Shown here: positions 6,039 to 16,945 of the stretch, one piece after another
Numbering within the stretch: position 1 is the first letter of the stretch
Layout of the letters: every line of letters starts with the position of its first letter
IMG/VR virus record: IMGVR_UViG_2657244986_000007
Coordinates: 1-17,428 of that record
Origin: a virus
Lineage: Duplodnaviria > Heunggongvirae > Uroviricota > Caudoviricetes
Length of the DNA stretch: 17,428 nucleotides
Strand: one strand, 5' to 3'
The notes under the pieces: model-generated
What the model was told of the DNA's origin: nothing
The model's input: the letters and a program-made list of their open reading frames with translations, nothing else
Databases searched by the model: none
Program-made: the position numbers and the translations under genes

Positions 6039-7415
6039 TCATACGTCCGCTCCTTGTGCATATCGTCTGCCACGTGCAGCGGGTGCATTTGATGTTGTGC
6101 AAATCTGTCTGGCTTCATCCTGGTCACATGCAACAAAGTGTCCGTTGCAGAACCGCTGGTAAACCGTACCAAGCGAGCCAAAACGGTTTTTTGTCACAAT
6201 GATTTCAGCAAATGGTGCGGCGCTACTGTTCTCGTCATATACCGCTTCCCGATAGAGCATGATGATTGAGTCTGCGTCCTGTTCAATGCTTCCTGAATCA
6301 CGCAAATCTGCGTTTGTCGGGCGTTTGTTTGGTCGCTTCTCAACATCGCGCGAAAGCTGACTCAGGGAGATAACAGGCGTTTTCAGGTCTTTCGCCATCG
6401 CCTTCAGGCTTCCGGAGATGTGAGCAATTGCGAGGTCGTTGCGGTCTGCTTTCGGCTTCTCAATCAGGCCAAGATAATCCGCCATGATGAGTGACAGGTT
6501 TGGATTTTCCTGTTTGTGCCGTTCTGCGATTGAGCGTATTTCTTCGACCGATAACCGCGAGGCATCGACTACCCATACATCCAAATCTGCAAGCTGACTC
6601 ATGCCGTTAGCAACGCGCGCCCAGCCTTCGTCATCCATCGATGCAGGATTTCGCAGCACGCTAACCGACATCCTCCCGGCGTTGGCAATACTTCGCTCTG
6701 CAATCTGCAATGCGCTCATTTCCATCGAGAAAATCAACACTCCGCGCCGGACGTCAGAACCAGGAATAACGCGGCTTGCAACGCCTTCGGCAATCTTCAG
6801 CGCCAGTTCGGTTTTACCCATACCAGGACGAGCGGCGATAATCACCAGGTCTTCTGCGTTCATCCCTCCGGTGATGGCGTCAAGTTCGTCGATTCCGGTC
6901 TTCAGGGTATCTGACTCTTCTCCGTTCCTCAGACGCCTGTCAAGCGTGTCAGTGTAGTCAGTGATGATTTCCCCTAACCGTACAGGTTTAACCTCGTCAC
7001 GGGGCTTTCTGATGGCTGAAAGACGCTTTACAAGTTCATCCATCGCCTGACTCGATGCGTCGATGGTTCCGCTTTGGATTGGTTCACGCATTTCATCCAT
7101 GATTTCCAGCACCAGACGGCGGTGATAGTTATCCGCGACCATTCCGGCATATCCCTTCAGGTTTGCGGCACTCGGGCAGTTTTTGCTGGTCATCAGGATT
7201 GACGTGAAATGCTCCTCTCCGCACGCCTCGGCAACCATCAGCGCATCGATTAGGTTTCTGTTTCTCGCCTGCTTGCGAATAACCTCGAAGGCTTTCCGGT
7301 AGAGCGGAATTGAAAACGCTTCCGGCTCTAGCGTTGCCAGAACGTCGCTGGCAGTTGGTGTTAATCCACCAATCAGCAGGCCACCGATAACGCTCGCTTC
7401 GATATCCTGTTTCAT
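6039..7415 (-). CDS. Replicative DNA helicase, DnaB family, 458 aa
   Basis: Walker A ARPGMGKT and DnaB-like N- and C-terminal regions. Its ATG overlaps the O stop (ATGA). Confidence 0.9.
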
Positions 7416-8233
7416 GCAATCCCCCTGTCTGCAAACTTCCCTTCCCGTACTCCCATTAACGAATCTTCCCTCAGCAGGTAATCAAAATCAGCTGTCCAGC
7501 CCGTGTCGTTGTCTCCGAAGTAAAACGGCTTGGCCTGATGCACAAACGCCCTGACATACGCTCTGAAACCGTCCACGTTTGGCGTTTTCAGTTGCGGGAT
7601 GATTTTCTTCAGGCGGCGTTTGCGTTTCTCGTTGACCGCAACAGCGTGTGGCAGTCTGTCACCGACTTCGGTGTTGTAGGCGTTCAGGAAGGATTCGTAG
7701 TCGATTCGTTCTGCCTTGCGACGTTCAGGTTTAACCTGCCCATCGCCGCCCCCGTTAGGGGGTAAGGGGGTATTTGTATTTATTGTCTTTTGTATATTGT
7801 CTTTTGTGTTTAGCTGACTTGGCTTATACCCATTAGCCGACTCGGCTAATGTTTTATTAGCTGTTTTAGCTAATGTTAAGCTGTCCTGGCTAATCCACTG
7901 AGAAACCACCTTGTTCACTCCGATTTTCACGCCATCAGCAATGAGGAATTTACGCTCGATAAGCTGGCGCTTGGCAGCGCAAACATGAGTGTGATGAATA
8001 CCTGTCATGGCTGCTATCTGCGTGTTTGTGAGTCGATCCATCGGCTTATTGAATCCGTATGTCTTGCGCATGATAGCGAGCATCACCTTCAGCTGCCGGA
8101 CGGTTAAATCAGCCATCAGCAGACTGTCGGTAATCTCGTTAGCAACGCGCATGAAACCATCTTCGGTATCTGCCACGCGATGCTCCACGACCTCCAGTTG
8201 AGGCCTGTAATCAGCTAACTTAACGACGCCCAT
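7412..8233 (-). CDS. O: Replication initiator protein O (lambda O-like), 273 aa
   Basis: The N-terminal region (...[37 protein letters not shown]...) resembles lambda O. The gene contains the iteron array. Confidence 0.9.
7766..7894. repeat. Replication origin inside O: four iterons of about 19 bp plus an adjacent AT-rich region
   Basis: Iterons TTAGCTGACTTGGCTTATA, ATTAGCCGACTCGGCTAAT, ATTAGCTGTTTTAGCTAAT and TTAAGCTGTCCTGGCTAAT at about 7810-7894. AT-rich tract 7766-7809, next to a G-rich CCCCCGTTAGGGGGTAAGGGGG run. Confidence 0.8.
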
Positions 8234-8381
8234 GTTTCACTCCTGCTTTGGCTAGTCTGTAAACACCAACAAGGCGCTCTGCGAACGCCCTGCTATTTGC
8301 TGCGGCTACCACTAATCCCTCAGGTGAATCAGGGTGTCGAATCTCTTCTTTTTCCTGGTATTTCTTACGACGTTTTGTCAT
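8220..8381 (-). CDS. Small basic protein, 53 aa, between cII and O
   Basis: Hand translation: [58 protein letters not shown] lies 6 nt upstream of the ATG. The 3' end overlaps the O start. Confidence 0.45.
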   Translation of the reverse strand: MTKRRKKYQEKEEIRHPDSPEGLVVAAANSRAFAERLVGVYRLAKAGVKHGRR

Positions 8382-8384
8382 AAT

Positions 8385-8459
8385 TACTCCTGTGGATTGA
8401 TCCAGTCTTTCTACATCAGGCCTCGAAGAATTCGCCGTTCTTCGGGGCTTTTTCTTTTG
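8385..8459 (+). ncRNA. oop: oop-like antisense RNA overlapping the 3' end of cII, ending at an intrinsic terminator
   Basis: Plus-strand hairpin CCTCGAAGAA-TTCGCCG-TTCTTCGGGG (8421-8447) followed by CTTTTTCTTTTG, inside the last codons of cII, as for lambda oop. The 5' end and promoter were not located. Confidence 0.5.
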
Positions 8460-8697
8460 TCAGGTAATTGGCAAGCCGCTTAGTCAGCTCAGCCATTTCA
8501 TCGTCTTCGATTCCGTATTCCAGAACAGCCAGCATCATGCTTACCTGCGAGAAGAAACCATTCTTCCATCGGCTTACCTGATATTCAGGAACCCCCATCG
8601 CTCGAGCGAATGTCTTCTGCCCCATCAGTGCCAGTTTGTTCAGCAAGGCTGACTCGATGCGAGCCGCTTTCTTGCTTTTAGTTGCAATAGTACCCAT
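8416..8697 (-). CDS. cII: CII transcriptional activator homolog, 93 aa
   Basis: ...ARIESALLNKLALMGQKTFARAMGVPEYQVSRWKNGFFSQVSMMLAVLEYGIEDDEMAELTKRLA... resembles lambda CII. Confidence 0.9.
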   Translation of the reverse strand: MGTIATKSKKAARIESALLNKLALMGQKTFARAMGVPEYQVSRWKNGFFSQVSMMLAVLEYGIEDDEMAELTKRLANYLTKEKAPKNGEFFEA

Positions 8698-8813: not shown

Positions 8814-10166
<1,353 letters not shown>

Positions 10167-16144: not shown

Positions 16145-16945
16145 ATGACCATCCACTTTCACGGCAGCCCAATATGGGGGGATGAGCATGCCCCTACAGA
16201 TATGCTGATTAAAGCCCTTTACCGTGATGGTGGGGCTTTTGTTTCATTTGCCAGACCAGAGCAGATGAAAAAGATTGCCATGTTCCCTTGTGATATACGC
16301 CTTGATAACGGCGCTTTTAGCGACTGGATGAAAGCATTAAAGAAAGGCACTCCGGTAGACTGGAGTAAGAGGCGAGCAAAATTCTACGACTTTGTTGGGA
16401 AGTGGTTCAGCAGAATTGAATGGTTTCTTATACCTGACGTTATCGAAGGGACAGAGGCAGAAAACGACGAGCAGATTGAGTTGGTTCCTGATTGGCTAAA
16501 ATCAAAAGCGGTTCCGGTCTGGCATACCGACGAATCAATTGAACGTCTTTTACGCCTTTCTGGCAAATTTGAATGGGTGGCGATTGGATGCTGCGGCCCA
16601 CACAGGCACATACGCTCTAAATGGTGGGAACAGAGAATGGATGAAGTTTTCACTGAGCTTTATATCAATCGTAATTTGAAAGTGAAAATTCATGGTCTTC
16701 GAATGCTCGACGTGAGAGTTCTTGGTATGTATCCGTTCGCCAGTGCGGATTCTACTAATGTTGCTGTTAACGTACCGAAGACAGAGAAGCGATTTCCTGA
16801 GATTACTGACAAACTGGCACGTACAGCTGTACTTCGCGCTGCTATTGAAAAGGTGCACCCGCCATCGATATCAGCATGGGTAGACAGAAAGATGAGAGAG
16901 CCGGCGCAAGCCGGTTTTTTATTTGAATTCACCGACGCCGCTTAA
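16145..16945 (+). CDS. Protein of unknown function, 266 aa
   Basis: Long ORF preceded by GGGGA. No motif I can assign with confidence (no P-loop, no PP-loop, no HTH recognised). Confidence 0.75.
   Translation: MTIHFHGSPIWGDEHAPTDMLIKALYRDGGAFVSFARPEQMKKIAMFPCDIRLDNGAFSDWMKALKKGTPVDWSKRRAKFYDFVGKWFSRIEWFLIPDVIEGTEAENDEQIELVPDWLKSKAVPVWHTDESIERLLRLSGKFEWVAIGCCGPHRHIRSKWWEQRMDEVFTELYINRNLKVKIHGLRMLDVRVLGMYPFASADSTNVAVNVPKTEKRFPEITDKLARTAVLRAAIEKVHPPSISAWVDRKMREPAQAGFLFEFTDAA
16899..16924 (+). terminator. Intrinsic-terminator-like hairpin with a GCAA tetraloop inside the last 15 codons of the 16145 gene
   Basis: CCGGC-GCAA-GCCGG followed by TTTTTTATTT. Confidence 0.55.

Follow-up and report, generated by a model that had tools for sequence, protein, structure and literature searches.

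In bacteriophage lambda, the gene for the cII activator and the gene for the replication initiator O lie only 32 bp apart (cII ends at lambda coordinate 38653 and O starts at 38686). This short junction carries the −10 element of the oop promoter, CATAAT, with a TG upstream of it, as well as a Shine-Dalgarno (SD) sequence and an ATG, and the oop RNA runs over the 3′ end of cII. The ATG of the junction opens O itself, and O is paired with the loader P rather than with a phage-encoded helicase.

Other lambdoid phages carry a further small open reading frame (ORF) at this place. The resulting ‘cII-oop-orf-O-P’ layout has already been described, together with a consensus for a conserved 33 nt junction, ACTGGATCaATCcACAGGAGTaATTATGaCAAA (Hayes et al., 2012). 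One representative is HK97 gene 53, which corresponds to Sf6 gene 42, ES18 gene 58, ST104 ORF27 and epsilon34 gene 49. In P22 and HK022, the slot between oop and the initiator gene is filled by orf48 (Pfam DUF2740, PF10872). HK97, P22 and Sf6 are all in standard laboratory use. In the literature on HK97 gp53, orf48, DUF2740 and PHROG 1331 we found descriptive mentions and no functional study.

A 53-codon ORF in the interval from cII to the initiator gene

The DNA analysed here is a 17,428 nt stretch from a virus of the Caudoviricetes (IMG/VR record IMGVR_UViG_2657244986_000007), which we refer to in full as the window. It has the composition of a typical lambdoid early region, with a 434-type cI, cro, N, Erf and SSB on one side and the nin genes, Q, holin and endolysin on the opposite side. 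Between the end of the cII-like gene at 8416 and the start of the O-like initiator gene at 8233 lie 182 bp, compared with 32 bp in lambda. This interval is occupied by a 53-codon ORF, hereafter ORF53. The features needed to describe its position are the following:

8416–8697, minus strand: cII-like activator gene, the upstream neighbour, in a different mosaic unit (Pfam Phage_CII, 7.6e-30)
8387–8391, minus strand: SD sequence AGGAG of ORF53, homologous to the lambda O SD, with a 5 nt spacer (TAATT) to the ATG
8220–8381, minus strand: ORF53, 53 aa, HK97 gene 53 family (PHROG 1331), most probably the first cistron of the replication module
8240–8244 and 8231–8233, minus strand: SD sequence AGGAG and ATG of the initiator, within the last codons of ORF53
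7412–8233, minus strand: O-like replication initiator gene (Phage_rep_O, 5.8e-33; PHROG 345)
6039–7415, minus strand: DnaB-family replicative helicase gene (DnaB_C, 1.3e-77), the third cistron of the module

On the minus strand, ORF53 starts with ATG at 8381–8379 and stops with TAA at 8222–8220. Its TAA lies 11 nt past the initiator ATG, giving an overlap of 14 nt (8220–8233) that recurs in all 100 loci examined; the initiator SD is likewise conserved inside ORF53 in the loci compared. An earlier note, made from the letters of this DNA, had described a 53-residue ORF with a strong ribosome-binding site that is extra relative to lambda and overlaps the start of O at its 3′ end, and had put the two cII-O gaps at about 30 and about 180 bp. 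The sequence bears out each of these statements, and the AGGAG that the note had placed 6 nt before the ATG is right to within one base.

ORF53 is an already annotated small gene and is not new. The encoded protein aligns with the PHROG 1331 profile from end to end (E = 2.6e-36; residues 1–53 on positions 1–53 of 53), a family listed as "unknown function". It matches HK97 gp53 at 52 of 53 residues (98.1% identity), with S30 in the window and N30 in the common allele, and about the same identity (~98%) is found to annotated genes in Sf6, ES18, ST104, mEp213 and Stx phages. Database entries carry the names HK97 gp53, ST104 ORF27, ES18 gp58 and Sf6 gene 42, or read "hypothetical protein". Members of the HK97 gp53 group share the position, the SD and ATG and the 14 nt initiator overlap of ORF53, and we noticed no substantive difference. 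At the DNA level, identity to the best-matching annotated phages, which include mEp213, HK544, HK446 and ST104, is 98.7–99.7%; over ORF53 alone it is at least 99% for HK97 and many Stx phages and 91% for ES18.

Of 5426 complete E. coli genomes, 571 have the gene, called by PGAP as "hypothetical protein", and it also occurs in 507 IMG/VR contigs. The family is nevertheless a narrow one: among 1.8 billion representatives it comprises 23 clusters at 50% identity, all of them short and all from Enterobacterales, and a profile search of the same representatives returned no larger protein containing the motif. Even at E ≤ 10 the sole Pfam match to ORF53 was a chance hit to TGT, and sequence searches of NCBIfam, PADLOC and the PDB gave none. 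An apparent hybrid of lambda O and ORF53 (P0040) was set aside; it comes from a 650 nt metagenome contig with 2.6x coverage and a broken initiator frame, and is a remnant or a chimeric assembly.

Overlapping signals and coding constraint

Both ends of ORF53 coincide with signals that belong to the other strand or to the next gene, and a further element lies within the ORF:

8374–8406, no strand assigned: conserved 33 bp mosaic junction (‘boundary sequence 5’) with the oop 5′ end, the −10 of the oop promoter pO, the SD, the ATG and codons 2–3
8356–8384, plus strand: putative oop promoter pO, assigned through its homology to pO of lambda and to the one annotated in P22, inside ORF53 codons 1–9
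8356–8361, 8376–8377 and 8379–8384, plus strand: parts of pO, namely TGGTAT at the −35 position, the TG of the extended −10, and the −10 CATAAT
8392–8459, plus strand: oop-like antisense RNA of ~68 nt with a terminator hairpin (8418–8450) and T-run, covering the last ~14 codons of cII
8272–8290, minus strand: 7 bp mRNA stem-loop at ORF53 codons ~31–37, with pairing conserved in 17 loci

The junction at 8374–8406 is the sole stretch that matches lambda (91%) or HK022 (100%), and the Sf6 record annotates it as ‘bsq5; boundary sequence’. An alignment of lambda, P22, HK97 and ES18 reveals that lambda O starts at the very bases that form the SD, ATG and first codons of ORF53 (ATGACAAA). The earlier note had also placed the ORF on the oop promoter region, and the lambda and P22 alignment agrees, as the CAT of the pO −10 element CATAAT is the complement of the ORF53 start codon. 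Codon 2 reads NCA (Thr, Pro, Ala or Ser) in every locus whose ATG sits on CATAAT. This invariance keeps the extended −10 TG of the opposite strand intact and leaves the amino acid free to vary. Moreover, the unrelated orf48 of HK022 repeats nucleotides 22–29 of the ORF (TACCAGGA) at an identical offset, and orf48 of P22 has TGACCAGGA there; this offset coincides with the annotated P22 pO −35. A simple sigma-70 promoter scan did not call pO, because its −35 is weak and matches at 2–3 of 6 positions.

The start of oop at 8392 is a putative one, placed by alignment with lambda. The predicted terminator folds with −23.3 kcal/mol (z −3.5), and the 5′ part of the oop-like RNA is identical to the P22 oop RNA that was recovered by RNA-seq (PMC13397905). 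Since Rfam returned no family for oop or for anything else in the region at gathering or permissive thresholds, the RNA is identified here by the lambda and P22 alignment only. At the other end of the ORF, the last eight codons (AGVKHGRR) double, read in a different frame, as the SD, the ATG and the opening codons of the initiator, and synonymous change is lower there (pS 0.42) than in the body. Because these overlapping signals sit at the junction and pO and at the initiator start, they constrain only the two ends of ORF53.

Such an arrangement raises the question of whether ORF53 encodes a protein. We compared 19 loci from phage records and other Enterobacterales genomes, whose products are 57–98% identical in amino acid sequence. 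All 19 loci keep the frame, with indels in multiples of three, and all have an SD-like purine run 5–10 nt upstream of the ATG. When a further 80 viral contigs are included, the frame is intact in 100 of 100 loci. Substitutions were counted by the method of Nei and Gojobori in 17 non-redundant loci over codons 14–44, which are free of known overlapping signals. Synonymous sites in this body are nearly saturated (pS 0.66) and nonsynonymous sites are conserved (pN 0.14), yielding a dN/dS of 0.093 with a bootstrap range of 0.05–0.12. Leaving out the codons of the hairpin changes this ratio to 0.105. Variation falls mostly on third positions, with mean pairwise differences of 0.18, 0.09 and 0.51 at codon positions 1, 2 and 3, respectively. 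Residues L23, A27 and FAER 33–36 are invariant. By the same counts, dN/dS exceeds 1 in both shifted sense frames, and each of the three antisense frames is interrupted by stops.

These data bear on the idea that ORF53 is not a gene, and that its frame stays open as a result of promoter, antisense-RNA or RNA-structure constraints. The idea draws on the position of the first ~9 codons over pO, on the initiator SD, ATG and first codons within the last ~8, and on the conserved 7 bp hairpin in codons 31–37. For the body of the ORF it is rejected by the low dN/dS and the intact frames: nonsynonymous sites are conserved amid a pS of 0.66 even without the hairpin codons, three-base periodicity is evident, no alternative frame is open, and not one of 100 loci has lost the ORF. 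We regard this explanation as effectively refuted, and judge that ORF53 is very probably a real, translated protein gene. The earlier note had posed the two possibilities as an either/or. Its small protein is supported for the body, where dN/dS is 0.09 and the other frames exceed 1 or contain stops; a frame held by overlapping RNA signals is supported for the ends of ORF53 and contradicted for the body. The comparison of synonymous and nonsynonymous change at homologous cII-O junctions, which the note had proposed, favours coding, and the loss of frame that it had named as counter-evidence was observed in none of the loci.

In the alignment of 17 loci, 98.3% of the cells that make up the 8272–8290 stem are paired and nine are changed on both sides, while slid controls reach 38–56% paired. 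None of 500 shuffles attains the observed values, and one pair exchanges among GC, CG, GU and UG. Because this alignment also served to derive the structure, we treat the evidence as suggestive only. The minimum free energy (MFE) fold additionally pairs 8322–8328 (codons 18–20) with the initiator SD region at 8236–8243, a pairing that is 89% conserved. The covariation of this candidate long-range, SD-masking helix does not rise above that of shuffles (88–134 of 500 reach it).

Association with helicase-type replication modules

The ends of the matches to two annotated phages delimit a small unit around ORF53:

8203–8406, no strand assigned: mosaic cassette comprising the junction, ORF53 and the first ~10 codons of the initiator, bounded by the ends of the Sf6 and HK97 matches

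The HK97 match extends from the initiator across ORF53 to its end at 8406, and the Sf6 match comes from the immunity side and ends at 8203, ~10 codons into the initiator. For this reason we consider 8203–8406 to be a separate cassette. In keeping with such a unit, the initiators that follow ORF53 begin with the same ~10-residue sequence or a close variant despite having unrelated N-terminal domains.

Neighbouring genes were then classified by best match in 100 ORF53 loci. Downstream, at least three initiator types were found (46 Sf6 gp43/HK022, 42 HK97 O and 11 P22 gp18), and one further locus has ES18 gp59, an initiator with lambda's origin-binding domain. Upstream, there are at least four cII types, and five loci have no recognisable cII. 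The gene after the initiator encodes a phage helicase in each of the 96 resolved loci, being of the DnaB family in 95 and the ES18 primase-helicase in one, and lambda P occupies this place in 0 of 96. Identical ORF53 proteins precede initiators with unrelated N-terminal domains and two helicase subtypes. ORF53 assorts with the replication genes rather than with cII or the immunity genes, and it is highly probable, on the comparative evidence, that it belongs to the replication module.

The same observations weigh against the label of lysis-lysogeny regulator that the earlier note had offered, which finds no support here. A CIII-like small regulator of this kind could, for example, affect the stability of CII or affect oop. 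ORF53 does lie between cII and O and over pO, and its 53 residues and amphipathic helix (see below) resemble CIII in general character. Against this, the loci with ORF53 have any of at least four cII types or lack a recognisable cII, and the mosaic boundary at 8406 separates it from cII. Furthermore, no Pfam family, Lambda_CIII included, matches at E ≤ 10, no relative is present in the PDB, and lambda, which has the classic switch, lacks ORF53. A role in the lysis-lysogeny decision is accordingly very unlikely.

Three unrelated families of small proteins alternate in the slot: ORF53, DUF2740/orf48 and PHROG 2519. The P22/HK022 orf48 resembles ORF53 in its position between oop and the initiator, in the SD and ATG of the junction, in its first codons and in having TACCAGGA or TGACCAGGA where the pO −35 lies. 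It is also small and basic, its stop overlaps the initiator ATG, and it precedes an initiator and a DnaB-like helicase. It differs in having 48 residues, an overlap of 8 nt and a following initiator that begins MSN. A similar-looking helix (RAFAER in one protein, RFRAEL in the other) made homology between the two a candidate, which was discarded: BLAST gives no alignment, the hhalign probability is 0.3%, and ORF53 has no Pfam match. By sequence comparison, then, orf48 is best taken as a positional analogue only.

The PHROG 2519 ORF (90 aa) occupies the same slot in other prophages, behind a variant SD/ATG junction (gaggtaattatATGCGAAA); downstream of it come an O-like initiator and the helicase type of the window. 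Its sequence is unrelated to that of ORF53, it is longer, and it stops 2 nt before the initiator ATG. The C-terminal 35 residues of this ORF weakly resemble the N-terminus of O-like initiators (E = 0.009).

To count slot occupants, the best 80 matches per query were sampled, and the loci in these samples are phylogenetically non-independent. The 80 loci seeded with the window's helicase comprise 46 with ORF53, 33 with the PHROG 2519 ORF and one that is truncated. We had considered that every helicase-type module might carry ORF53 or orf48; this proved wrong, because 34 of the helicase-seeded loci had neither, 33 of which are accounted for by PHROG 2519. The slot is thus filled in 79 of the 79 resolved loci with the window's helicase, and is filled also in P22, HK022 and ES18. 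An ORF of any of the three families is found in 0 of 76 resolved lambda O-P loci, where the ATG of the junction is the start of O. In summary, a small ORF stands in the slot in every resolved helicase-type module sampled and in no O-P module sampled.

Possible functions of the slot gene

Taken together, the data are best explained, with a probability of about 60%, if ORF53 is an HK97 gene 53 family protein gene that heads a helicase-type replication module and has an accessory role. ORF53 would be read from the early-right (pR) transcript. Its product has a mass of 6.06 kDa, a pI of 10.7 and a net charge of +8, and the median pI of the family is also 10.7; DUF2740 is likewise basic (pI 10.1). 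An AlphaFold model built with 34 homologues (pLDDT 68, moderate confidence) has a disordered stretch of 20 residues followed by helices at 21–29 and 31–49, the second of which is amphipathic (muH 0.50). The protein is therefore predicted, with a model of this quality, to consist of a disordered N-terminal tail with basic and acidic residues and an amphipathic helical hairpin. Foldseek comparisons of the model with BFVD and the PDB gave no meaningful match.

A protein of this type may be a small nucleic-acid-binding accessory factor that acts in the early replication or expression of its module, and not in lysis-lysogeny. Specific contact between ORF53 and the variable parts of initiator or helicase is argued against by the identical ORF53 proteins that precede unrelated types. 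Whether the accessory role concerns replication or initiator expression in particular is a point on which we are tentative, and we put the chance of it at somewhat below even.

The arrangement of the two genes offers one route to such an effect. Because ORF53 ends 11 nt past the initiator ATG and the initiator SD sits in its last codons, ribosomes that finish ORF53 would probably be handed on to the initiator by translational coupling. Coupling is not required, however, since the initiator has a strong SD of its own.

Alternatively, ORF53 could be a cis-acting leader alone, which carries ribosomes to the initiator start and sets its translation rate, with a peptide that has no function. On this view the junction ATG would have to be used for translation, since its place in the oop −10 protects it from loss. 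The same SD and ATG serve lambda O and the unrelated slot ORFs. The stop codon falls at or near the initiator start in each family (a 14 nt overlap here, an 8 nt overlap in P22, a 2 nt gap for PHROG 2519), the initiator SD is embedded in ORF53, and the MFE fold pairs the SD region with codons 18–20. Yet purifying selection in the middle of the ORF (dN/dS 0.09; L23, A27 and FAER 33–36) is not expected of a spacer, and the helix that would mask the SD lacks covariation support. We consider a pure leader function to be highly improbable.

The main rival to a role in the module is that ORF53 encodes an accessory, ‘moron-like’ small early protein that is unrelated to replication and has settled in a permissive slot, for example one for host takeover, anti-defence or exclusion. 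That three unrelated families share one slot is the kind of pattern seen more at an accessory-gene hot spot and less with a core replication factor; lambda does without any of them, and the ORF53 family is narrow (23 clusters, all Enterobacterales). In densely organised phage operons the stop of one gene often overlaps the start of the next, and the 14 nt overlap is therefore unspecific as evidence. A merely permissive slot is harder to reconcile with its being filled in 79 of 79 loci with the window's helicase and empty in 76 of 76 resolved lambda O-P modules, in the samples taken, or with a cassette that takes in the first ~10 codons of the initiator. PADLOC also gave no match, although its library covers defence rather than anti-defence. 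On balance we hold a function outside replication to be rather unlikely.

A broader proposal starts from the same cross-phage pattern. The slot ORFs of the three unrelated families might together be an obligatory, functionally convergent part of those lambdoid replication modules in which the helicase is encoded by the phage. They could provide a small basic adaptor with which the initiator loads the phage helicase at ori, or a coupling device, perhaps with the conserved internal hairpin, that sets initiator dosage. If true, either role would account for a slot that is occupied in each resolved helicase-type module examined and vacant in each O-P module. We think it unlikely in this strong form.

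The analysis re-finds an annotated hypothetical gene, and it changes little in that respect because ORF53 was on record already. What it does resolve is the nature of the frame, which is very probably that of a genuine protein gene and does not stem from the oop promoter, and it delineates the parts of ORF53 that are shaped by signals of the other strand or of the next gene. The point that may deserve experiment is the pattern of slot occupancy across phages: lambdoid replication modules of the helicase type possibly have a third component that has been overlooked.

Conserved elements within the 53-codon gene

Two elements of the 53-aa gene (ORF53, HK97 gene 53 family), which lies between the cII-like gene and the O-like initiator gene, stand out:

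8379-8381 and 8376-8378, ORF53 ATG and codon 2; the ATG overlies the -10 hexamer CATAAT
8272-8290, minus strand, conserved 7-bp stem-loop GGGCGUUCGCAGAGCGCCU, internal to the ORF53 mRNA

Wherever the ORF53 ATG sits on CATAAT, as it does in the window and in 8 of the 19 comparison loci, codon 2 is NCA, encoding Thr, Pro, Ala or Ser. NCA at this codon preserves the TG of the extended -10 element of the oop promoter on the opposite strand. Within the stem-loop, compensatory GC, CG, GU and UG changes are found among 17 diverged loci, and pairing is kept at 98%, a suggestive figure given that the structure was derived from the same alignment used to score it.

Alleles, hybrids and host labels of ORF53

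A single identical ORF53 protein carrying Asn30 is common to 83 of the 100 homologous loci. Codon 30 of the window gene (8292-8294) is AGC, encoding Ser30, and among the loci shown no other carries Ser at this residue. One ENA contig of 650 nt with 2.6x coverage (L183) carries a hybrid reading frame, in which lambda O codons 1-15 are fused in frame with codon 16 onward of ORF53. Downstream of this hybrid the initiator frame is broken, and the hybrid is probably either an assembly chimera or a remnant left by rearrangement.

Two homologues reside on contigs labelled 'Bacillota bacterium MAG' (L003, 98% ORF53 identity) and 'Chryseobacterium sp.' (L005, 81%), each with DNA typical of an enterobacterial lambdoid prophage. 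These host labels probably reflect mis-binning or contamination.

Other genes of the window

9690-10166 (likely start 9762), plus strand, ORF matching PHROG 2651, directly after the 434-type cI
16145-16945, plus strand, queuine tRNA-ribosyltransferase-like gene (PHROG 887, E 1.4e-102)

The first ORF occupies the position of lambda rexAB. Its family is annotated as of unknown function, its N-terminus resembles a signal peptide, and its product may be an exported protein expressed from the prophage. The second gene belongs to the early-left operon of the prophage.

Exchange at the cII-initiator interval

L188:1282-1554, 90-aa PHROG 2519 ORF in the cII-initiator interval, with 32 similar IMG/VR loci
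8203-8233, minus strand, initiator start region, compared with loci L002-L020

The PHROG 2519 ORF represents a third family in this interval, unrelated in sequence to the other occupants, and O-like initiators show a weak N-terminal similarity to its C-terminal 35 residues (E 0.009). Prophages carrying it there encode a helicase 99-100% identical to that of the window.

In the window and L002-L020, initiators downstream of ORF53 share one N-terminal decapeptide despite having unrelated N-terminal domains, which include the HK97 O type, the Sf6 gp43/HK022 type and the lambda-O type in ES18. In contrast, initiators downstream of orf48, an alternative occupant, start MSN. Because the initiator N-terminal start follows the upstream ORF, the mosaic joint is placed approximately 30 nt inside the initiator gene.
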